Shown: positions 1 to 42,727 of the stretch, piece after piece
Layout of the letters: each line of letters starts with the position of its first letter
Position numbering within the stretch: position 1 is the stretch's first letter
NCBI GenBank assembly: GCA_052386455.1
Contig: JBQTKD010000034.1
Location: 892 to 64,891, forward strand
Length of the DNA: 64,000 bases
Reading direction: 5' to 3'
Source: Sporichthyaceae bacterium
GTDB taxonomy: Bacteria; Actinomycetota; Actinomycetes; Sporichthyales; Sporichthyaceae
Notes under the pieces: model-generated
The model's input: only the letters and a program-made list of their open reading frames with translations
Told to the model about the DNA's origin: nothing
Database searches by the model: none
Position numbers and translations under genes: made by a program

Positions 1-18
1 TCCTCCCCTAGTCCACCC

Positions 19-112
19 GCGTTACGTCCGCTCAAACTGCGTTGCGTCCGCTCAGAAGTGGGCTATAGCGCTCCGATGAGCGGACCCAACGCAAGGCGGG
101 CGGACGCAAGGG
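19..112. repeat. Compound palindromic intergenic element. Four ~16-nt units (GCGTTrCGTCCGCTCA) lie at 20-nt spacing, two direct and two inverted, around a GCTATAGC centre
   Basis: GCGTTACGTCCGCTCA at 19-34 and GCGTTGCGTCCGCTCA at 39-54. The inverted copy TGAGCGGACCCAACGC is at 77-92 and a partial copy GCGGACGCAAG is near 100-110. The centre is GGGCTATAGCGC at 61-71. It lies immediately 3' of the last cassette gene (stop at 115-117). Confidence 0.7.
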
Positions 113-114
113 GC

Positions 115-777
115 CTAGGACAGGCAGGCGCGCAGGGTCTTCGGGCAGTCGAGGGGGCGGGCGGCGGCGATCCGTTTGCCGTTGGCCTCGACGCGGCCGA
201 GGATCGCCTCGATCTGCGCGATCTGCGCGCGCAGCGTGCGGGTGTCGGAGCCGAGGCCGTCGATGCGGCGTAGGGCGTCGGCGAGCAGGCGAGCGGAGGC
301 CCGGGCCTCCTGCTCGGCGCGGCCGAGGTTGCCGGCGATGTCGCCCGTGTCGGCGACCATGGCGACGACGACCGGAGCGAGGTCTTCGGAGAACGCCCGC
401 AGGTCGGCGGCGGTGACCGCGAGCCGGGAGAACGACTCGGCGCTGGTCCGCGTATGCCGCGAGATCTCCTCGGCCGACACCGCGGCGGCTGCGGTGGAGT
501 CCGCCGCGCTCCCCCACGCGGTGCCCAACGGCAGGAGGCCGGCGGCAAACTCCTCGGTGAGGTCGCCGGTGCGACGCAGGAGCGCCTCGACCGCCGGGTC
601 GGCGGCCGCGGAACTCAGCTCGGGTGCGATCGTGTTGTGGAGATCGGAACTGACGGACCGTGAGTCCAACCAGGTGTGCCCCAGCAGAAACGTACCGATC
701 ACGGTGAACACCGCGATCAAGCCCCGGTTCACCGCCGTGGGTCCGGCATGCACCAGCCGGTGGGCGAGATTCAGCAC
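115..777 (-). CDS. Cassette 1 type-C protein: single-pass, alanine-rich helical membrane protein with a C-terminal C-x6-C loop (function unknown)
   Basis: Lower part of ORF 115..1470(-). The GTG at 777-775 overlaps the upstream stop in GTGCTGA, the same junction as paralog 2956..3642. TM segment LIAVFTVIGTFLLG; the protein ends LDCPKTLRACLS. Confidence 0.7.
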   Translation of the reverse strand: MLNLAHRLVHAGPTAVNRGLIAVFTVIGTFLLGHTWLDSRSVSSDLHNTIAPELSSAAADPAVEALLRRTGDLTEEFAAGLLPLGTAWGSAADSTAAAAVSAEEISRHTRTSAESFSRLAVTAADLRAFSEDLAPVVVAMVADTGDIAGNLGRAEQEARASARLLADALRRIDGLGSDTRTLRAQIAQIEAILGRVEANGKRIAAARPLDCPKTLRACLS

Positions 778-1454
778 GACTGCGCGCCCCGGCGAACGGA
801 CACGGCGGGCGAGCGGCACACGTCTTCGAGGTGGTCGTTGACCTTCTCCCCCGTCTTGCCGATGTCGCCGAGGTCCCCGCGCACCGCCCGGAGCACCTCG
901 TTGATCGCCGCAAGCTTGGCGCGGATCCCGTTGAGGCCGGTGCGGTCGGTGCCCTCGATCTCGGCGAGCGCGTTGCCCATCGCCGCGGTGCGGTCGAGGA
1001 TTTGCTCGAGCAGGGCCGCGGCCTCGGTGGCGTTGGTACCGATCCGACCGATGCGCTCGCCCGCCGGCTCCAAGTCCTTGGCGGCACCCGCCAGCCGCGG
1101 CGCGGCACCGGAGAGATCCGCCTCGACGAGCTCGAGCGACACGATCGCCGCCGCGAGGTTGGCCGCGACCTTGTCGGTGTCCCTCGGCAGGATCCGCAGC
1201 GCCGCGTCCACCACGGCAAGGGAGTTGTTGATCCGCTCGAGTTGGCTCGGCATCGTCTGCGTGCGCCCGGACAGGCCACTGACGGCCACGTCGGTCGTCC
1301 GCAGGTTGTCCTCGATGCGGGTCAACGAAGCCCCGATGAGCACGAGAAACACCGTCGCCACCGCGACGACAACGCTCGCCAGCGCCATCCGCGTCCGCGA
1401 CGGCGGCCGCCGGTCCAGCGCGACGTCCGACCAGGTCTCCTCGCCGCCGTTCAC
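771..1454 (-). CDS. Cassette 1 type-B protein: single-pass, alanine-rich helical membrane protein with a C-terminal C-x13-C loop (function unknown)
   Basis: Lower part of ORF 771..2237(-). The GTG at 1454-1452 forms a GTGA overlap with the upstream stop, as in paralog 3636..4325. TM segment ALASVVVAVATVFLVLIG; the protein ends CRSPAVSVRRGAQSC. Confidence 0.72.
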   Translation of the reverse strand: MNGGEETWSDVALDRRPPSRTRMALASVVVAVATVFLVLIGASLTRIEDNLRTTDVAVSGLSGRTQTMPSQLERINNSLAVVDAALRILPRDTDKVAANLAAAIVSLELVEADLSGAAPRLAGAAKDLEPAGERIGRIGTNATEAAALLEQILDRTAAMGNALAEIEGTDRTGLNGIRAKLAAINEVLRAVRGDLGDIGKTGEKVNDHLEDVCRSPAVSVRRGAQSC

Positions 1455-2092
1455 GAGCGGCCTCGCGCACGGGGGCAGGAGCCGGAGCCGTTGAGGCCGC
1501 GGTCGATGCAACCGGTGAGGCGCTCGGTCTGACCCAGCGTCACGAGGATGTCGCGGCCCTCGGCCAAGATCCCCTCGAGGATGCGCGCGGTGGCGGGCAA
1601 CTGCGCGTCGATGAGCGCGACCCCGCGACGGATGCGCGTCAGATCGGCGAGGATCCGTGCGGCGTCGGCGTTCAGTCCGTCGAGCCGCCCGGCGAAGGCG
1701 GTGACGCCGGTGTCGAGCCCGGCGAGCCCGGCCCGGATCTCCGCGGCGCTCCGGTCGATCGACGCCGACGATCCGTCGATGGACGCGGTCCGTTCGCGGA
1801 TCGCGGCCAGCAGTTCGGCGATGCGCGCCGAGCGGGCGTCGATCTTTCCGGTGGGGCCGGACAGCGGAAGCAGCGCGGCGGCGATCGAGGCGGCGAGATC
1901 GTTGGCGCGCTCCAACTGGGCGATCGCGCCGCCCTCGCTCTCGATGCCACGCGATGACGCGGCGATGTTCGAGGTCCGGTCCTGGATCGAGGCGGTCGTG
2001 CGTTCGGCGTGCAGCAGCAACCCGACGACCGCGGACCCGGCCGCCGTCACCGCGACGACCGACAGCCAACCCGTACTCCAACCACGCCTCAT
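1451..2092 (-). CDS. Cassette 1 type-A protein: single-pass, alanine-rich helical membrane protein with a C-terminal C-x10-C loop (function unknown)
   Basis: Lower part of ORF 1451..2632(-). The ATG at 2092-2090 forms an ATGA overlap with the upstream stop. TM segment WLSVVAVTAAGSAVVGLLL; the protein ends CIDRGLNGSGSCP. It aligns without gaps to 4322..4966. Confidence 0.75.
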   Translation of the reverse strand: MRRGWSTGWLSVVAVTAAGSAVVGLLLHAERTTASIQDRTSNIAASSRGIESEGGAIAQLERANDLAASIAAALLPLSGPTGKIDARSARIAELLAAIRERTASIDGSSASIDRSAAEIRAGLAGLDTGVTAFAGRLDGLNADAARILADLTRIRRGVALIDAQLPATARILEGILAEGRDILVTLGQTERLTGCIDRGLNGSGSCPRARGRS

Positions 2093-2703
2093 CGCGTAGG
2101 AACCGTCGTCCGAAACGAAGCGACGACGGCGTCGAACACGGGCGCCAGCACGGAGAGCCGACTGTCCGGGACCGCCTGGAAGACGAGGGTGTACATCGAG
2201 GTGCCGGAGAACGCGAACCAGTGGGTGTGCACGCCACGAACGCCGCCGGCGTCGAACGTGTACAGGTACTGGACCGCGGGCAGCCCGGCCAGCGTCGTCG
2301 GAGTTGCCTCCAGGACCTCCAGCCCCACTTCGGGTGCTCCGAGCACGGCGTCGGTCACCGCTCGAAGGTCGGCGACGTTGGACGCGTCCACCGGCTTGGC
2401 CAGCGTGGTCCGCTTGACGCTCACGGCGTCCTGCCCGCCGACGCGGAACAGCACGCCACCGGGGATCGCCTCCGAACGCCAGCCGGGCGGGTACTCCAGC
2501 GCGAAGCCCGCAGCGGGATCGCGATAGCCCTGATACCCGACGGTCGTCTGGCTGGCCACCGGGGCGGCCACCGAATCGTCCACGCCGCGCGCGACCCACC
2601 AACTGCCGGCGAAGGCCAGCATTGCGGCGCACGTCGCGATCCGCTTCCGCCTACGCCGCCGCCTGCGGGCGTACGTGCCGGCGCCCACGTCCCGCGCGTC
2701 CAC
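2089..2703 (-). CDS. Cassette 1 N-terminally anchored exported alpha/beta protein, tentatively PsbP/Mog1-like (LpqN/DcrB-type fold)
   Basis: ORF 2089..2772(-). The start was trimmed to the GTG at 2703, where third-position GC rises and a GGGAAAG sequence lies upstream; the start remains uncertain. Arg-rich N-terminus followed by hydrophobic segment IATCAAMLAFAGSWWVA. The motif YRDPAAGFALEYPPGW is typical of PsbP-like domains (from memory). About 70% identical by eye to 4966..5568. Confidence 0.65.
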   Translation of the reverse strand: MDARDVGAGTYARRRRRRRKRIATCAAMLAFAGSWWVARGVDDSVAAPVASQTTVGYQGYRDPAAGFALEYPPGWRSEAIPGGVLFRVGGQDAVSVKRTTLAKPVDASNVADLRAVTDAVLGAPEVGLEVLEATPTTLAGLPAVQYLYTFDAGGVRGVHTHWFAFSGTSMYTLVFQAVPDSRLSVLAPVFDAVVASFRTTVPTR

Positions 2704-2955
2704 CCGACTTTCCCAGGTGTCCGCCCGGCGTTCCGAGGTGTCCACTCGGTCTCCCCCGCGTCCCTGCCGCAACGGGAGTTCCGGCGGCTCGACTTCGGGG
2801 GACCGTACAACGGATCAATGGGGCGACACGGGCCAAATGCAGAGACTGCCGACGCCGAATCGAGAACTCGTAGGAGGTTTGTCCAGATTCGTTCCAGAGC
2901 GCGGCAAAGTGCCTTGCTCGTAGCAGATTCCGGTATTCTGACTATCCGTCAGCAT

Positions 2956-3642
2956 CTAGCGGGCGGGTCGCGGGAAGCACGCTCGCGAGTCCGACGGGCA
3001 ATCGAGAATCTTTGCCGCCGCCACGTTTGCGCCGTGCTTCTCGATGCGCCGCAGGACGGCTTCGATCTCCTCGGCGCGGGCCCGCACGGCGGCAGCGTCG
3101 GTCGCGATCCCCTCCGTCGCCGCGACCGCGCGGTCGAGCCCACTCTTCGCCAGGGCGGTCTGCCGGTCCGCGGCGGCCAGGGTGGTGCGGATGTCCCCCA
3201 CGCCCTCGACGATCGCCTTCACCACGGGGCTCAGGTCCCCGAGCAAAGCGCGGATCGCAGACACGGACGCGTCGATGTTCGCCACGTGGATGCGGGTGCT
3301 GTCGGAGTCGTCGCGGATCCCGTTGGTCTCCTCGACCATCGTCGTGGTCGCATCCGCCGCGCGCCCCAGGCCCTCCGCGATGGGCAGCAGGCCGGTGGCG
3401 ATCCGCTCGGTCAACACGCCGGTGCGGTCCAGCAGGGCGAGCGCCTCGAGGTCGCCGTCCACCGCGCTCAACTGGGGCGTGATCGCGCCGCCGATGTCGT
3501 CGTCGATCTGCGTGGCGTCGTAGGCGGTCTTGGTCAGCAGCAGGAACGCGGCCAACGCGAAGGCGCCCACGATGGCGAGGTTGAGCGTGGGTGCGCGCCC
3601 TGCGGTCGACTCCGCCGAGAGCCACGCCCGAAGCCTCAGCAC
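2956..3642 (-). CDS. Cassette 2 type-C protein: single-pass alanine-rich helical membrane protein with a C-terminal C-x6-C loop
   Basis: ORF 2956..3642(-). GTG start in a GTGCTGA overlap with the upstream stop. TM segment LNLAIVGAFALAAFLLL; the protein ends LDCPSDSRACFP. Confidence 0.75.
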   Translation of the reverse strand: MLRLRAWLSAESTAGRAPTLNLAIVGAFALAAFLLLTKTAYDATQIDDDIGGAITPQLSAVDGDLEALALLDRTGVLTERIATGLLPIAEGLGRAADATTTMVEETNGIRDDSDSTRIHVANIDASVSAIRALLGDLSPVVKAIVEGVGDIRTTLAAADRQTALAKSGLDRAVAATEGIATDAAAVRARAEEIEAVLRRIEKHGANVAAAKILDCPSDSRACFPRPAR

Positions 3643-4325
3643 GACTGCGGCCCGCTGCGCAGCCCGACGGCCGGGGAGCGGCAGATGCTCTCCAGATGCC
3701 CGTTGATTCGGCGGTTGGTCGCGAGGATGTCGCCGAGGTCGCCGCGGACCGCGGTCAGTACCGCGTTCACCGCAGCAAGGTTCGCGCGCACGCCGGCGAG
3801 CCCCGTCTTCACCCTGCCGTCGATGGCGGCCAGCGAGTCGTGGATCGATCCGGTGTTGCCGAGGATTCGCATCAGCAGGGCGGCGGTCTCCTTGAGGTTT
3901 GCGCCGATCGGGCCGATCAGCTTCGCCGACGGCTCGAGGTTCTTCGATGCGCTGGCGAGGTTCGGCGCCGTCGCCGCGAGATCGGCCTCGATGAGCTCCA
4001 TCGCCTCGATCATCGCGGTGAGGTTCGAGGCGATCGTGTCGGTGTCCTTCGGCAGCACGCGCAGCGCGGCCTCGATGACCTCGAGGGACCGGTTCACCCG
4101 TTCGACCTGTTGCGGCAGCGGCGCGGTGCTGCCGGAGACGTTGCCGACCGCGGTGTTCGCAGCAGTCAGGTCGTCGTCGATCCGGGACAGCGAATTGCCG
4201 ATGAGGACGAGGAAAAGCGCCGTGACGACGACGATCGCCGCGCCGATCCCGACCCAGGCGGTCAGCCAGCGGCGTAGCGCGGACTCCGGCTCGGCCGCTT
4301 CGGCTTCGGAGTCGGCGAAGGTCAC
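3636..4325 (-). CDS. Cassette 2 type-B protein: single-pass alanine-rich helical membrane protein with a C-terminal C-x13-C loop
   Basis: ORF 3636..4325(-). GTG start in a GTGA overlap with the upstream stop. TM segment WVGIGAAIVVVTALFLVLIG; the protein ends CRSPAVGLRSGPQSC. Confidence 0.78.
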   Translation of the reverse strand: MTFADSEAEAAEPESALRRWLTAWVGIGAAIVVVTALFLVLIGNSLSRIDDDLTAANTAVGNVSGSTAPLPQQVERVNRSLEVIEAALRVLPKDTDTIASNLTAMIEAMELIEADLAATAPNLASASKNLEPSAKLIGPIGANLKETAALLMRILGNTGSIHDSLAAIDGRVKTGLAGVRANLAAVNAVLTAVRGDLGDILATNRRINGHLESICRSPAVGLRSGPQSC

Positions 4326-4966
4326 GACGTTCCCCTAGACGGGCAGGACGCCGAGCCGTTCAGGCCACGGTCGATGCAGCCGGCCAGCCGCTCGGTCGTG
4401 CCCAGTGCGGTGAGGATGTTCCGCGCCTCGGCGAGAATTCCGTCGAGGATCCGCGCCGTGGTCGGCAGGTCCGCGTTGATGAGCCGAACACCCCGCTGAA
4501 TGCGCGTCAGATCCCCCAGGATGAGCGCCGCGTCCGCGTTCAGGCCGCCGACGCGCGTCTGGATCGTCTTGGCGTCCAGCCCGATGCCCTCCAGACCGGT
4601 ACGGATCGTCGCGGCACTCGCATCGATGGCGGCGGCCGAATCGTCGATGGACGACGTACTCGCCCGGATCGCGGCGAGCAGATCGACGACCCGCGCCGTG
4701 CGGCCGTCGATGCGATCCACGGGACCGGCGAGGGGCTTGAGCGCTGCGGCGATCTTCGCTGCGAGCTCGTTGGTCCGCTCCAGCTCTGCCAGGGAGTCCG
4801 TGTACCCGTTGATGCCGCGCGAGGACGACGCGATGTTGGAGGTCTTGTCGTGAATCGACGCCGCGTTGCGCTCGGTCCGCACCAACAGGACCGTGGCGAC
4901 CACGGCGATCACCGCGACGACGACGACCGAGACCCGGCCCGGGATGCGGTCCGGCAGGCGGGCCAT
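4322..4966 (-). CDS. Cassette 2 type-A protein: single-pass alanine-rich helical membrane protein with a C-terminal C-x10-C loop
   Basis: Lower part of ORF 4322..5353(-). The ATG at 4966-4964 overlaps the upstream stop in TGATG. TM segment VSVVVVAVIAVVATVLLV; the protein ends CIDRGLNGSASCP. Confidence 0.78.
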   Translation of the reverse strand: MARLPDRIPGRVSVVVVAVIAVVATVLLVRTERNAASIHDKTSNIASSSRGINGYTDSLAELERTNELAAKIAAALKPLAGPVDRIDGRTARVVDLLAAIRASTSSIDDSAAAIDASAATIRTGLEGIGLDAKTIQTRVGGLNADAALILGDLTRIQRGVRLINADLPTTARILDGILAEARNILTALGTTERLAGCIDRGLNGSASCPSRGTS

Positions 4967-5568
4967 CAGGACTCCACTACGCGGAAGGACTCCGCCACGC
5001 GATCGAAGGCCGGGGCCAGCGCCGCGAATCCGGTGTCCGGCAGCGTCTGGAAGACCAGCGTGTACATCGTGCGCCCGTCGAAGGCGAACCAGTGGGTGTG
5101 CGCCCCGCGCAGCCCGGAGCTGTCGAACGTGTAGAGGTACTGCACGCCCGGCAGGCCGCCCAGGGTGGTCGGGGACGCCTGCAACACCTTCAAGCCGGCT
5201 TCGGGTGCGCCCAGCACTGCGTCGGTCACCGCGCGCAGGTCCGCCAGGTTCGTGGAGTCCACCGGCTCGGCGAGCTCGGTCCGCTTCACGCTGACGGCGT
5301 CCTGCCCGCCGACGTGGAGCAGGACTCCTCCGTCCACCGACTCGGGCCGCCACCCGGCCGGATGCGAAAACTCGAACCGGCCCGCGGGGTCCCGGTACGG
5401 CACGACCTGCTCGGTGCTCGCCGCGGCGAGCACCGGAGCGTGGGACGAGCCGCCGGCGACGCCGAGCGCCGCTCCGCCCACCAGCAGCCCAAGGGTCAGG
5501 CCGCCGGCCAGCGCAAGCCGCCGCAGGCGACGCCGCCCCAACCTGGGAGTGGGCTGCGGATCAGCCAT
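4966..5568 (-). CDS. Cassette 2 N-terminally anchored exported alpha/beta protein, tentatively PsbP/Mog1-like
   Basis: ORF 4966..5568(-). ATG start preceded by GGAAGGA. Signal/anchor segment RRLRRLALAGGLTLGLLVGGAALGVAGG. Motif YRDPAGRFEFSHPAGW. Confidence 0.78.
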   Translation of the reverse strand: MADPQPTPRLGRRRLRRLALAGGLTLGLLVGGAALGVAGGSSHAPVLAAASTEQVVPYRDPAGRFEFSHPAGWRPESVDGGVLLHVGGQDAVSVKRTELAEPVDSTNLADLRAVTDAVLGAPEAGLKVLQASPTTLGGLPGVQYLYTFDSSGLRGAHTHWFAFDGRTMYTLVFQTLPDTGFAALAPAFDRVAESFRVVES

Positions 5569-5587
5569 GGCGATCCTTCCGTTCAGC

Positions 5588-5624
5588 GGTAGCGATCGCT
5601 ACCCTGGTGGTAGTGATCGCTACC
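5588..5624. promoter_or_regulatory. Twin 16-bp palindromic operators (TetR-type) in the divergent tetR/cassette-2 promoter region
   Basis: GGTAGCGATCGCTACC at 5588-5603 is a perfect palindrome. GGTAGTGATCGCTACC at 5609-5624 has one mismatch. The two are 21 bp apart. They lie between the cassette start (5568, minus strand) and the TetR start (5643, plus strand). Confidence 0.7.
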
Positions 5625-5642
5625 CTAGCGGCGAGGTCGACC

Positions 5643-6260
5643 ATGATCAATCCGGCACCACGGGAACGACTGCTGGCCTCGGCCGGCGAGTTGTTCGGCC
5701 GCGAGGGCGTCGCCGCAGTCGGGGTCAGCCGGGTAATCGAACACGCCGAGGTCGGCCAGATGAGCCTGTGGCGCACGTTCGGCTCCAAGCGCGGTCTCGT
5801 CGAGGCGTGGCTGCGCGACGTGGACGCCGCGAACCTCGCCGAAATACGCGAGGCGGTCGCGGGCGACGCGCCCCCACGGGAGCGTCTCAACGCTCTCATC
5901 GACGCCTACGCCCGCCGAGCTGCCGCGCCGACGTTCACCGGATGTCCGCTCGTCCGCGCCGCCGCCGAACCCGGCGCCACCGGCCCGATCGCCGGCGAAC
6001 TCGCCCGAGCCCACAAGGAGGCGATGATCGGGATCATCGCCGAGCTCGCCGAGGCGGCGGGCGTGCACAACCCGCGCAGCCTGGCCGCGCAACTGTTCTA
6101 CGTCGTCGAGGGCGCGAGCGTCGCCGTCGGCCTGGGCGTGGACGTCTCCGTCGAGGAGGCGAGGACCGCGGCCCTCGTGCTGTTCGACACCGCCACGGGG
6201 CGCGGCTTCGCACCCGCACCGCCGCGGCCCGGCTGGAGCCCGCTTCCCACCGCCCGCTAA
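5643..6260 (+). CDS. TetR/AcrR-family transcriptional regulator
   Basis: ORF 5607..6260(+), trimmed to the ATG at 5643 so that the operators stay outside the CDS. The N-terminal HTH reads RERLLASAGELFGREGVAAVGVSRVIEHAEVGQMSLWRTFGSKRGLV. Confidence 0.85.
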   Translation: MINPAPRERLLASAGELFGREGVAAVGVSRVIEHAEVGQMSLWRTFGSKRGLVEAWLRDVDAANLAEIREAVAGDAPPRERLNALIDAYARRAAAPTFTGCPLVRAAAEPGATGPIAGELARAHKEAMIGIIAELAEAAGVHNPRSLAAQLFYVVEGASVAVGLGVDVSVEEARTAALVLFDTATGRGFAPAPPRPGWSPLPTAR

Positions 6261-6280
6261 GGCGTCGCCAGCGGGCACGA

Positions 6281-6355
6281 ACACTCCCGATAGTGCAGTT
6301 CAGGCTCGCTCCAGAGCCCTTTTGCGTGCCCCGACTGCACTATCGGCGAGAGTGT
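6281..6355. terminator. Long hairpin between convergent tetR and secA, possibly a bidirectional terminator or REP-like element
   Basis: Arms CGATAGTGCAGT (6288-6299) and ACTGCACTATCG (6334-6345) are perfect. Outer arms are ACACTC (6281-6286) and GAGTGT (6350-6355). The loop holds a nested GGCTC..GAGCC stem followed by CTTTTG. Confidence 0.45.
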
Positions 6356-6357
6356 GG

Positions 6358-9153
<2,796 letters not shown>

Positions 9154-9167
9154 CGCGCGTACTCCTA

Positions 9168-9189
9168 CCTGTTTGCGAGCTTGCGAGCG
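9168..9189. repeat. 22-nt exact repeat CCTGTTTGCGAGCTTGCGAGCG, copy 1, in the secA 5' leader
   Basis: Identical to 36592-36613. It contains the tandem TTGCGAGC TTGCGAGC. On the secA sense strand it abuts the Shine-Dalgarno sequence. Confidence 0.8.
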
Positions 9190-9309
9190 AACATCAGCAC
9201 TGTGAGACGGTCGGCATTGCAGAGAGAGCCAACCGCAGCATCCTAGGGTTCCAACCCGCCAAGACGACTTGACGCACCGGACTGTGATTCGAAGGGGTTG
9301 GATGGGCGG

Positions 9310-9894
9310 ATGCCGCCCGATCTGCCCGACGAGCCCATCGAGATCGCTGCGGGCAGGATCCAGCTCCGTCCCTGGGAGCACCGGCTGGCGCCCGAGCTGC
9401 TCGCCGCCTTCGCCGATCCGGAGTACCGGCGGTGGGGCCTACCCGCGCCCGAGCCGACCCTCGAAGGGGTCCACCAGTGGATCGACGGGCGCGACCGTGC
9501 GTGGCGGGCCGGGGAGCGCCTGTCGTTCGCCGTCCAGGACATCACCACCGCAGCCCTGCTCGGGGAGGTCGGGCTCAAGGGATTCGACGTCTGGCCGTCG
9601 GCGGCCGAAGTCGGGTATTGGGTCGCGCCGGCGGCCCGTCGCAGGGGGGTGGCCACCGCCGCGGTGCGCACGCTGAGCCGCTGGGCGTTCGGCGCGCTCG
9701 ACCTGCACCGCCTGCGGCTCGACCACGCCGTGGGAAACACCGCCTCCTGCGTCGTGGCGGCCCGCTGCGGGTTCGCCGTCGAGGGCATCGCTCGCTCGGC
9801 CCAGCCCCTCGGGGACGGCACCTGGTCCGACGTCGAGACGCACGCCCGCCTGGCAGCCGACCCGCCGTGCTCGATCGAGGGGGCTGCCCCGTGA
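9310..9894 (+). CDS. GNAT-family N-acetyltransferase (RimJ/RimL-like)
   Basis: ORF 9298..9894(+). The ATG at 9310 is preferred over the TTG at 9298. Acetyl-CoA site-like motif [19 protein letters not shown]. The layout is typical of the Acetyltransf_3 family. Confidence 0.85.
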
Positions 9895-35628: not shown

Positions 35629-36537
35629 ATGACGGTGGTGGTGACCGGCTCGGCCGGGTTCCTCGGCCGTGCCGTGATCGCGCGCCTGGTGGCGCAGGGG
35701 CGCCCCGTACTCGGCGTCGACCGTCTACCCGCCCCGGTCCAGGGCCCCGGTCACCGCGAACTGTGCGTCGACCTGCTCGACGGCGACGCGCGAGCCACGG
35801 CGGCGCTGCGCAGCGCCCGTGGCGTGATCCACCTGGCGGGGTGCCCCGGCGTACGGGACCGTCGCCCGGACATCGCCTGGCTGCGGCACCGGGACAACGT
35901 GCTCGCCTCCGCCGCGGTGCTCGGGGCCGCGGGCCTCGAGGTGCCGGTAGTGGTCGCTACCTCGTCGTCGGTGTACGGCGGGACAGTCGAGGGCCGCGCA
36001 TGCAGGGAGGACGACCCGCTGCGCCCACGCGGTGGCTACGCCCGCAGCAAGGCCGCCGTCGAGTCGCTGTGCGAGGCCCACAACGCGGCCGGTGGCACCG
36101 TCGTCCTGGCTCGGCCGTTCACCGTGGCCGGCGAGGGCCAGCGCCCGGACATGGCGCTCGCGCTGTGGATCGAGGCCGCGCTCGCCGACCGCCCCCTGCG
36201 TGTACTGGGCAGCCTGGACCGCACCCGGGACATCACCGACGTCCGCCAGGTGGCCAGGGCCCTCGTCGACCTGCTCGACGCCGGAGTGCCGGGCCCGGTG
36301 AACGTCGGCACCGGCGTCGGCCACACGCTCTCCGCCATGATCGCCGCGGTCGGAGCGGAACTCGGCCGAGCCGTCTCGGTCGAGATCGAGCCGGCATCGC
36401 ACGACGAGGTCCGCGACACCCTCGCCGACACCACCCGCCTCCGCGAACTCGTCGGCTGGGCCCCGACCACCGACCTCCGCGCCCTCGTCGCCCGCCAGAT
36501 CACGACCGCCCCTACCCGGCACTACGCAATCGCCTGA
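35629..36537 (+). CDS. NAD-dependent epimerase/dehydratase (SDR family)
   Basis: Tail of ORF 35506..36537(+). The ATG at 35629 has GGAGG 7 nt upstream. Rossmann motif VVVTGSAGFLG. Catalytic YARSK. Confidence 0.85.
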   Translation: MTVVVTGSAGFLGRAVIARLVAQGRPVLGVDRLPAPVQGPGHRELCVDLLDGDARATAALRSARGVIHLAGCPGVRDRRPDIAWLRHRDNVLASAAVLGAAGLEVPVVVATSSSVYGGTVEGRACREDDPLRPRGGYARSKAAVESLCEAHNAAGGTVVLARPFTVAGEGQRPDMALALWIEAALADRPLRVLGSLDRTRDITDVRQVARALVDLLDAGVPGPVNVGTGVGHTLSAMIAAVGAELGRAVSVEIEPASHDEVRDTLADTTRLRELVGWAPTTDLRALVARQITTAPTRHYAIA

Positions 36538-36591
36538 CGCGGCGTCAAGAGCCGGGGAACACAGGCGATTGAGGCGAGCGGAGCGGAAGAG

Positions 36592-36613
36592 CCTGTTTGC
36601 GAGCTTGCGAGCG
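36592..36613. repeat. 22-nt exact repeat CCTGTTTGCGAGCTTGCGAGCG, copy 2
   Basis: Identical to 9168-9189. Here it forms the loop of the GGAAGAGCC (36585-36593) / GGCTCTTCC (36613-36621) stem. The ~43-nt repeat at 36624-36665 follows it. Confidence 0.8.
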
Positions 36614-36742
36614 GCTCTTCCGATTCCGAGCCGATTGAGCCTGTTGACGAGCGAAGCGCGGAACACGACAGCCGAAAAGGTTGCTCGAGCGCCCGGTTTG
36701 TCCAGGTTTGTGGAGCCGTTTCGGCTGACACGGCAGGCGAAA

Positions 36743-37747
36743 TCAGCCGGCGACGGGGGCGGTGTCTCCCATGCTGAGACGCTCGGCGTCGCCGGTGTAG
36801 CCGGAGCGGGCGGCGCGGCGGCCCGGCCCGAAGACCCAGGCCAGGAACAGCACCTCGGCCGTGACGCCGATGCCGATGCGCACCGGGGTCGCCCACCCCC
36901 GGCCGGTCACGAAGCCCTCGATCGTGCCCGCGACGGCCAAAACGACGACGAGCCCGAGCGCGACGGCCATGGCCGCCCGGGCGGTCTCGGCGAGCGCCTC
37001 GCCGCGGGTCCGCGGCCCCGGATCGATCCAGGCCCACCCGACGCGCAGCCCGACCCCGCAGGCGACGAACACCGCCGTCAGTTCGAGCAGACCGTGCGGC
37101 AGGAGGAGACCGAGGAAGGTGTCCAGCCGCCCCGCTTCCGACATCAGGCCGAGCGCGACGCCGAGGTTGGCCGCGTTCATCCAGACCACGTAGAACACGG
37201 GCACGATCAGCACCCCGAGCGTGATGCCGGCGGCCGCGACCCACGCGTTGTTGGTCCACACCTGGGCGGCGAAGGAGCCGCGGCCGTACTCGTAGTAGTA
37301 CGACTCGAACGAGCCCCCGGGGCGGGTGAGCTCGGCGTACTGCTCGGGGCTGACCGACGCCGCCTGCACCCCGGGATTGCTGTCCACCCAGATAGCGATC
37401 GCTACCGTAATGGCGAAGAACGCCGCCGCGACCCCCGCCCACCAGGGCCACGCCAGGTACACCGCGGCGGGGAACCGGCGCCGGAAGAAGTCCGCGACGT
37501 CCCGCCGTGCCGGAGTACTCGCCCCCGCCACCGCCGAGCGCGCCCGGGCCACCAGGGCGGACAGCCGGCCGAGCAGCGCCGGGTCCGGGGCAGCCGAGGA
37601 CAGGATCGACAGGTGCGTCGCGGTCTTCTGGTACAGCTCGACGAGTTCCTCCGCCTCGTCGCCGGACAGCCCGCCCGCGCGGTTCAGCAGGACGTCGAGG
37701 CGTTCCCATTCGCGGTTGTGCACCGCGACGAACGCGTCGATGTCCAC
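36743..37747 (-). CDS. Stage II sporulation protein M-like (SpoIIM family) polytopic membrane protein
   Basis: ORF 36743..37747(-). N-terminal helical domain MDIDAFVAVHNREWERLDVLL. TM helices follow, with the motif LLPHGLLELTAVFVACG. Confidence 0.8.
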   Translation of the reverse strand: MDIDAFVAVHNREWERLDVLLNRAGGLSGDEAEELVELYQKTATHLSILSSAAPDPALLGRLSALVARARSAVAGASTPARRDVADFFRRRFPAAVYLAWPWWAGVAAAFFAITVAIAIWVDSNPGVQAASVSPEQYAELTRPGGSFESYYYEYGRGSFAAQVWTNNAWVAAAGITLGVLIVPVFYVVWMNAANLGVALGLMSEAGRLDTFLGLLLPHGLLELTAVFVACGVGLRVGWAWIDPGPRTRGEALAETARAAMAVALGLVVVLAVAGTIEGFVTGRGWATPVRIGIGVTAEVLFLAWVFGPGRRAARSGYTGDAERLSMGDTAPVAG

Positions 37748-41302: not shown

Positions 41303-42727
41303 TCAGGGTGTCGAAGTGGGCGACGACACAATCGACGACGGCTCGGCACCGTCTCCGGAGGCCGGGGCAACCACGCCGGCCTGCGCCTCGACGGGCTTCG
41401 TCGGCGTCGGCGTCGCGGTGGCCGTCGGGGTCGGCTTCGGCTTGGCGGTGGGGTCGTAGTTGATGACCACGTCGCCCTGCTCGGCGGCCCGCTTGGCGGC
41501 CCGGTCGGCGTCCGCGGAGTCCCGGGCGGCCTTGTCGGCGAGCATCGGGATCATCTGCGGGACGATCTGGTCCAGCAGCCACGGGAGGCTCTGCGGGCTG
41601 GCGTAGTACGCCGCCTCGGCCAGGCCGGGCCCGAGCTCGAGCACGCGGCCCTTCTTCACCGCGGTCAGGTTCTGGTAGGCGGCGGTCTTCTTCAGCCGCT
41701 CCATGGCCGCGGTGCCGTCGTTGCCGACGACCATGATCAGCACGTCGACGCCGTTGAGGTAGCCCATGGCGCCCGTGGACAGGTCCACGTTGTAGATCGC
41801 GCGCCGGAACGCCTTGCCGCTGGGCGAGGTCACCGACTCGATCTGGCGCGGGAAGGTCATCCGCAGCGAGGTGAAGATGCGCGACAGCGGCGCGTACGGG
41901 TTGATGATCCGGTACTGGCCGTCCGGGCCCGGCGCGGCGACGGCGATGTTCGCGTCGCGGAACTCGGGGTTCTTGGACACGACGGCGCCGAACGCGTCCT
42001 GCGTCTGCTGGACGAGCTTGGCCGCAGCGGCCGGACGCCCGAAGACGGCGCCGACCGCGATGACCTCCTCCTGCCAGGAGGAGAAGTAGTCTCGGCCGTC
42101 GGCGGAGACGCCGGTGATGGTCGGGGCGATCTCCTTGAGCTTGAGGTAGTCCTCGAGCGTCCACCCGGAGAACAGACCGATGATGACGTCCGGCTTCAGG
42201 GCCTTGATGGCCTCGAGGTCGTAGACCTCTTTCCAGATCGGGGTGTTCGTCGCCTGCGGGAACTCGGTGCGCAGGATCGGACCGTCGTCGCTGGGGTATA
42301 CCCGCCCGTTCTTCGGGTCGCGAACGTCGGAGACGACCACCTGGTACGGGCCGGCCTTTGCGTCCTCGGACAGCCACGGCGAGTTCGTCCACGGGGTCGC
42401 TGCGCCGAAGTAGTTCCGGATCGTCAGCGGCTTGATGCCCAGGGCGCTCATGGCCTCCTGGTCGCGGAAGCCGAGCGCGACGACCCGCTTCGGCTCCTTG
42501 TCGATCTTCGTGGTGCCCCAGGTGTGCTTGAAGTACACCGGGTACGCACCGGACTCCACGGGGTACTTCACGAGGTTTCCGACGGCGGCGGCGGACGGCT
42601 CCGGCGAGGGGCCGGCCTCCACCGGGGCGTCGGCGCTTCCCGCGCCGCAGGCCGCGACAAGGCTCAGTGCCGCAACGGCGAGCGTTGCCTGGGCACTACG
42701 GAGAAGACGCCGGCTGAGCACGGTCAA
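41303..42727 (-). CDS. Lipoprotein, periplasmic-binding-protein type 2 (iron-siderophore/cobalamin-type ABC substrate-binding protein) with a Pro/Thr-rich C-terminal extension
   Basis: ORF 41303..42727(-). Lipobox LVAAC. Motifs PKRVVALGFRDQEAMSALGIKP and KPDVIIGLFSGW. The tail reads KPKPTPTATATPTPTKP. No permease or ATPase gene lies nearby. Confidence 0.75.
   Translation of the reverse strand: MTVLSRRLLRSAQATLAVAALSLVAACGAGSADAPVEAGPSPEPSAAAVGNLVKYPVESGAYPVYFKHTWGTTKIDKEPKRVVALGFRDQEAMSALGIKPLTIRNYFGAATPWTNSPWLSEDAKAGPYQVVVSDVRDPKNGRVYPSDDGPILRTEFPQATNTPIWKEVYDLEAIKALKPDVIIGLFSGWTLEDYLKLKEIAPTITGVSADGRDYFSSWQEEVIAVGAVFGRPAAAAKLVQQTQDAFGAVVSKNPEFRDANIAVAAPGPDGQYRIINPYAPLSRIFTSLRMTFPRQIESVTSPSGKAFRRAIYNVDLSTGAMGYLNGVDVLIMVVGNDGTAAMERLKKTAAYQNLTAVKKGRVLELGPGLAEAAYYASPQSLPWLLDQIVPQMIPMLADKAARDSADADRAAKRAAEQGDVVINYDPTAKPKPTPTATATPTPTKPVEAQAGVVAPASGDGAEPSSIVSSPTSTP

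Follow-up and report, generated by a model that had tools for sequence, protein, structure and literature searches.

Twin palindromes between a TetR-family gene and one of two tandem envelope cassettes in Sporichthyaceae, likely operators of the regulator

Two near-identical 16-bp palindromes lie in the short divergent region between a tetR gene and the first gene of a four-gene cassette (A2-B2-C2-D2) in a Sporichthyaceae MAG, and we consider it likely, judging by their sequence and its conservation, that they are the operators (op1 and op2) of the adjacent TetR-family protein. The window analysed here is a stretch of 64,000 bp (contig C34, positions 892-64891) from this 4.75-Mb assembly (G000; 154 contigs, 88% complete), the nearest relatives of which are also Sporichthyaceae MAGs. 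A first-pass annotation of the window had already read the palindromes as TetR sites. That reading gains support from their conservation in ten loci, their absence where an orthogroup tetR is missing, their near-uniqueness among intergenic sequences and their overlap with promoter-like elements.

The divergent region and its genes

The genes and signals of the region are the following, in window coordinates.

2956-3642, minus strand: D2, a paralogous helical single-pass protein
3636-4325, minus strand: C2, an all-helical single-pass membrane protein ending C..x13..C; sub-threshold Pfam matches only
4322-4966, minus strand: B2, an all-helical single-pass membrane protein; start overlaps the A2 stop (TGATG); no Pfam family
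4966-5568, minus strand: A2, a PsbP-like exported or anchored protein of 200 aa (Pfam PsbP, 23.8 bits against a cut-off of 23.5)
5574-5580, minus strand: Shine-Dalgarno sequence of A2, GGAAGGA, from sequence; close orthologues keep CCTTCC
5588-5603, no strand: op1, putative operator 1, GGTAGCGATCGCTACC; separated from the A2 start codon by 19 nt
5609-5624, no strand: op2, putative operator 2, GGTAGTGATCGCTACC; separated from the tetR start codon by 18 nt
5633-5636, plus strand: Shine-Dalgarno sequence of tetR, GAGG, from sequence; conserved
5643-6260, plus strand: tetR, TetR/AcrR family, 205 aa; Pfam TetR_N and a full-length match to PDB 3jsj

The gap between tetR and A2 is 74 bp long, bounded by the A2 ATG (complement, 5566-5568) and the tetR ATG (5643), and both palindromes lie where the first-pass annotation had placed them between 5568 and 5643. 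Op1 is a perfect 16-bp palindrome and op2 has one mismatched pair. The spacing of 21 bp given in that annotation is correct if counted start to start, which is also the centre-to-centre distance; the intervening gap is 5 bp. The direct repeat formed by the two sites has an actual length of 18 bp (GGTAGYGATCGCTACCCT). The layout thus adds up as 19 + 16 + 5 + 16 + 18 = 74 bp, and the order across it (A2 ribosome-binding site, op1, 5 bp, op2, tetR ribosome-binding site) is almost symmetrical. TetR and A2 are transcribed divergently, an arrangement repeated in ten orthologous loci, and secA is convergent to tetR.

The protein encoded at 5643-6260 is a bona fide member of the TetR family. Its length falls within the range expected for the family (about 190-220 aa), and its N-terminal helix-turn-helix (HTH) matches Pfam TetR_N (PF00440, residues 10-55) with 39.3 bits, above the curated threshold of 24. 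A profile alignment to the solved structure 3jsj spans both domains (residues 3-184, E 1e-25). The C-terminal domain is nearest to Pfam TetR_C_13 with 24.9 bits, under the cut-off of 27, which makes this a tentative subfamily assignment. The start of the gene, ATGATCAAT, is kept in orthologues. The recognition helix carries an orthogroup-specific motif, [GA][QH]MSLWR, which reads GQMSLWR in this protein; the next relatives (at most 46% identity) have AKASLY in its place, and the locus of one of them (P0010) has no twin sites upstream. No characterised orthologue was retrieved by a search of 5.8 billion proteins, a PDB profile search or a literature search, and a metagenome scan with the TetR alignment returned paralogues only (at most 41% identity). 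The orthogroup so far comprises only Sporichthyaceae MAGs and metagenome contigs that share the locus layout.

Downstream of the spacer described further below, a second cassette, A1-B1-C1-D1 (2703-115), is collinear with A2-B2-C2-D2 (5568-2956) on the minus strand, and the proteins of the two are 34-66% identical. Each cassette looks like one operon, because its gene junctions overlap (TGATG, ATGA). A domain-database search gave no family assignment for the B, C and D proteins, and an AlphaFold model of C2 built on an alignment of eight sequences is all-helical with a mean pLDDT of 39, a confidence too low for a fold search. The cassette itself is rare, being found in 7 of the 15 genomes of the order and, among 401 genomes sampled from the class, in 9. 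Pfam identifies no enzyme or pump among its genes; since the target is neither an efflux pump nor a catabolic enzyme, it offers no hint of the ligand.

Distribution of the sites across loci and within the genome

The search for TetR orthologues among 5.8 billion proteins gave eight further clusters with identities of at least 54%, six of them new beyond the genomes in hand; the contigs of these six were fetched, and on all of them tetR is divergent from the cassette or from its first gene. Together with G000, G001, G002 and one locus of G012 (G012a), the six metagenome contigs make up ten canonical loci, with tetR identities of 51-90%. In all ten of these orthologous loci with canonical sites, twin palindromes precede the tetR start at an equivalent position. 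Their half-site consensus is GGTAnYGA, in which T3 and A4 never vary (36 of 36 half-site readings, taken from the nine other loci). The invariant part of the sites consists of the GGTA/TACC arms, beyond the GATC core, and the flanking bases diverge. This conservation of the twin sites is meaningful, because at 51-90% tetR identity neutral intergenic DNA would be scrambled.

The first-pass annotation had taken the spacing of the palindromes as two helical turns. The centres are indeed 21 bp apart in the six closest loci, but they are 19 bp apart in two others (G012a and L075) and 20 bp apart in another two (L076 and L077), so strict helical phasing is not required. Since the spacing ranges from 19 to 21 bp, cooperative binding on the same face of the helix is not assured.

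The presence of the sites follows that of tetR. In G001 and G002, which belong to the same genus as G000, the gene order is secA - tetR <> A2B2C2D2 - spacer - A1B1C1D1, and G012, which represents another genus, carries tetR<>ABCD twice, at separate loci. Cassettes without an orthogroup tetR, namely cassette 1 of G000, G001 and G002 and the single cassettes of G004, G006 and G010, have no site above background. The second locus of G012 (G012b, L036; contig C226, about 7440-7500) has shortened, degenerate sites only, GATAGCGCTAAC and GGTACGCTACC, with a best matrix score of 2.6 bits; its half-sites lie 4-5 bp closer together, and the recognition helix of the adjoining TetR reads GHMSLWR, not GQMSLWR.

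Two further observations were made along the way. The cassettes without tetR in G010 and G004 have in common a different conserved upstream region (L056 1-345 and L057 1-200), in which a GC-rich hairpin (CCCCGTCACCTGCACCGGTGACGGGG) is followed by a promoter-like CTGACA-N17-TAGCCT. In G002, an operator-like sequence, GGTAGCGACCGCTACC, lies inside the 3' end of that genome's own tetR (C65:38997-39012), where it encodes V-A-T-A-T with rare codons; it has no counterpart in G000.

Within the G000 genome the pair is close to unique. A genome-wide search for the palindrome, as proposed in the first-pass annotation, found op1 and op2 as the only exact matches to the pattern GGTAGNGATCGCTACC in the 4.75-Mb assembly and no other intergenic copy. 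When a weight matrix was derived from the nine other loci (18 sites) and the G000 sites were left out, op1 ranked first (27.4 bits) and op2 second (27.1 bits) over the whole genome. Perfect 16-bp palindromes number 438 in G000, so that a single one is unremarkable; only in the tetR-A2 gap does such a palindrome have, at a distance of 16-40 bp, a partner identical at 15/16 positions. The genome has about four other twin-palindrome pairs of different sequence. As twin palindromes noted in G000 outside the tetR locus, GGTTTCACGTGAAACA occurs twice, 35 bp apart, at C93:40559, and ACTCCGGYRCCGGAGT twice, 24 bp apart, at C58:44311; these two are probably operator pairs of other regulators. A full-text literature search with the operator sequence returned a single unrelated primer match and nothing else.

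The motif is not strictly confined to the tetR-A2 locus, as four further sites in G000 score 23 bits or more, all of them inside genes. They are listed here with a weaker neighbour.

window 35946-35961: operator-like site inside an NAD-dependent epimerase gene, 23.1 bits
window 37391-37406: operator-like site inside a SpoIIM-like membrane-protein gene, 25.8 bits
C111:41751-41766 and 41922-41937: operator-like sites in a CitMHS/ArsB-type permease gene (locus L005/L094), at least 23 bits
C111:42450-42465: operator-like site in the same CitMHS/ArsB-type permease gene, 17.8 bits

The intragenic sites use a common reading frame, xxG-GTA/ATA-xxG-ATC-GCT-ACC, which includes codons that are rare in G000 (GTA, 1.9% of Val; ATA, 0.5% of Ile; GCT, 3.4% of Ala). 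Column-permuted matrices gave 0.22 matches of at least 23 bits on average, and four or more such matches in 2 of 120 permutations. The half-site 8-mers show no genome-wide enrichment. Two permease sites are kept with rare codons in G002 (C162:17870 and 18167; L086), but the G012 orthologue lacks them. Neither G001 nor G002 keeps the sites at 35946 and 37391, which were for this reason dropped as targets. Compared with that of G002, the G000 copy of the permease looks damaged, with about 42 aa deleted and a change of frame at the N terminus. Elsewhere in the window, the intergenic segment at about 36560-36745 belongs to a dispersed repeat family, with dozens of copies of 70-180 bp at 72-94% identity across G001 and G002.

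The intragenic sites may be secondary binding sites. That they form a small dispersed regulon of intragenic operators, kept by selection against codon bias, appears rather unlikely. Were the permease sites real, a TetR roadblock would stop transcription inside the transporter gene, and the transporter, perhaps the carrier of the inducer of TetR, would be coupled to an envelope complex of the PsbP-like protein and three helical membrane proteins.

Predicted promoters, mode of action and other readings

Both promoters are predicted to overlap the operators, because the ribosome-binding sites abut op1 and op2 and leave no other room. A strict consensus promoter scan of positions 1-6500 found nothing, and the promoter model draws on conservation alone. 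Its elements are as follows.

5622-5627, minus strand: predicted -10 of the cassette-2 promoter, TAGGGT, from conservation; its last three bases (GGT) are the outer edge of op2
5645-5650, minus strand: predicted -35 of the cassette-2 promoter, TTGATC, from conservation; inside tetR codons 1-3 (ATG ATC AAT), 17 nt from the -10
5600-5605, plus strand: candidate -10 of the tetR promoter, TACCCT, at the right edge of op1; fits TAYnnT, in which all ten loci keep T, A and the final T

On the cassette strand, all ten loci have TTGnnn-N17/18-TAnGGT overlapping op2, with TAnGGT invariant, and the TTG of the -35 is the complement of an invariant CAA in tetR codons 2-3. Transcription of cassette 2 is predicted to start near 5615, and that of tetR near 5612. 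The tetR promoter is the weaker assignment of the two; a recognisable -35 for it (TTCCGT, N17 upstream) is present in genus-level relatives only. On this model the operators would overlap the promoters of both tetR and A2-B2-C2-D2.

From these features we infer binding by TetR, the sign of regulation and gating by a ligand. Each 16-mer, with half-site GGTAnYGA, would take one TetR dimer. Op2 would then cover the -10 and start site of cassette 2, and op1 would lie at about +12 to +27 relative to that predicted start. With TetR bound, cassette 2 and tetR itself would both be shut off, and release of TetR, presumably triggered by a ligand at the C-terminal domain, would turn both on.

The palindromes could belong to TetR and yet serve an activator or dual regulator rather than a simple repressor of both genes. 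A few TetR-family proteins do activate, the HTH region gives a weak match to the NCBIfam 'activator FasR', and the promoter positions are themselves deduced. Against this, op1 and op2 take up all the room available for the two promoters, and the conserved -10-like hexamer overlaps op2; an operator over the -10 is the geometry typical of repression by occlusion in the TetR family. We regard an activating or dual role as improbable. It is still harder to credit that a different, possibly global, regulator binds the sites and that the neighbouring TetR is a bystander. The operator-like intragenic sites speak for such a regulator, with about six sites of at least 23 bits in all against the average of 0.22 for permuted matrices, as do the two sites kept in the G002 permease gene. 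However, among the genomes and contigs examined, every cassette without an orthogroup tetR is also without twin sites, and no further intergenic copy occurs in the genome; the diverged tetR locus of G012b, with its degenerate remnants only, is an exception in the opposite sense, having an orthogroup tetR next to decayed sites.

Each palindrome is self-complementary, and might as such be a nucleic-acid structure (an mRNA 5' hairpin, an attenuator or a cruciform) or a copy of a dispersed palindromic repeat. But in a hairpin test positions 5 and 12 were unpaired in 7 of the 10 orthologous sequences for both sites, overall pairing was no better than in shuffled sequences, and op1 and op2 show no compensatory changes among the ten loci. 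Because such changes are lacking, what is conserved is the half-site sequence, as for a dimeric DNA-binding protein, and hairpins were rejected for this lack of covariation. A 16-mer with zero loop is in any case a poor hairpin, Rfam has no match in 2500-6400, and the sites are not dispersed, being the single intergenic pair in the genome; a structural or repeat origin is thus highly unlikely. A chance occurrence, or a restriction or methylation motif without regulatory role, has in its favour the many perfect palindromes of the genome and the CGATCG/GATC core. We give it next to no credence, as two near-identical copies hold the same position across genera while their flanks have diverged, the GGTA/TACC arms are invariant and not the GATC core alone, and the tetR identities of 51-90% mean that the orthologues are neither contamination nor near-identical strains. 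Operators of the adjacent TetR therefore remain our preferred reading of op1 and op2.

The duplicate cassette, known systems and significance

The second cassette and its upstream region have these coordinates.

115-2703, minus strand: cassette 1 (A1 B1 C1 D1), judged from a tree to be a tandem copy; lacks tetR and operators
2704-2955, minus strand: cassette-1 upstream spacer, without an operator-like site; conserved block CCGTTGTACGGT at 2802-2813 and GGACAA at about 2876-2881

According to the first-pass annotation, the palindromes are tied to cassette 2 only, and this is borne out in three species: the cassette-1 spacers of G000, G001 and G002 contain no operator-like site. The matrix reaches no more than -8.5 bits in 2704-2955, where random window pieces of 250 bp average -3.8 and the tetR-A2 gap scores 27.8 bits. 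The spacer has conserved blocks of its own, CCGTTGTA[CG][GC]GT and GGACAA. It was also considered as a decayed copy of tetR or the operators, which was rejected, as it has no residual similarity to tetR or to the tetR gap. In a maximum-likelihood tree of the C proteins, the tetR-linked cassettes form one clade (support 95/96), and the three C1 copies form another (100/99) nested within the C2 clade of the genus (100/99). Given this nesting, cassette 1 arose by a tandem duplication specific to the genus, and tetR and the operators stayed with cassette 2; in the proposed mechanism, it would be a later tandem copy made without either.

In G001 alone, cassettes 2 and 1 are separated by a gene on the opposite strand that encodes a secreted protein of roughly 200 aa (L033, about 9130-9735). 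Because of this gene, cassette 1 of G001 needs its own promoter. In G000 a search for a terminator between D2 and A1 was negative, so that some read-through may occur. We propose that cassette 1 is not directly controlled by op1 and op2. The earlier suggestion that the two copies may be regulated differently is supported by the spacer without operator, its own conserved upstream block, the intervening gene of G001 and the tree position of C1.

The arrangement as such is an ordinary and well-known kind of switch; the regulator and the target operon are the less usual part. In Tn10-type tetR-tetA, the divergent region holds tetO1 and tetO2, two palindromic operators of about 15-16 bp that overlap both promoters; one TetR dimer binds each operator, and the own gene is also controlled. 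The locus described here shares with it the divergent regulator and the short gap filled by two palindromic operators and, by prediction, the promoter overlap and self-control. It differs in its operator sequence, which is unrelated, and in its spacing, which is 19-21 bp in this orthogroup as opposed to about 30 bp centre to centre for tetO1 and tetO2. The target differs too, being a PsbP-like exported protein with three helical membrane proteins and not an efflux pump.

By sequence profile, 3jsj is the solved structure nearest to the protein, which it resembles over both domains. It is a putative TetR-family regulator from structural genomics, and its PDB molecule name mentions neither operator nor ligand nor function. 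The recognition helix of 3jsj is VSKRSMYQ, compared with VGQMSLWR here, and its DNA specificity probably differs. The actinobacterial repressors KstR, KstR2, AmtR, Mce3R and Rv0078 belong to the same family and follow the same logic of HTH and palindrome, with distant matches (E 1e-13 to 1e-4) confined to the N-terminal DNA-binding domain. These regulators have different operator motifs and several control large regulons, whereas the sole intergenic target of the present motif in the genome is the local one.

For the TetR orthogroup, the analysis gives a testable operator, GGTAnYGATCRnTACC in two copies, together with a promoter model. It also provides a handle on the four-gene envelope cassette, as a molecule that releases TetR would show the condition in which the cassette is needed. 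The locus would moreover be a clear natural example of how the regulation of tandem duplicates diverges, in which one copy appears to have kept the repressor switch and the other to have lost it.
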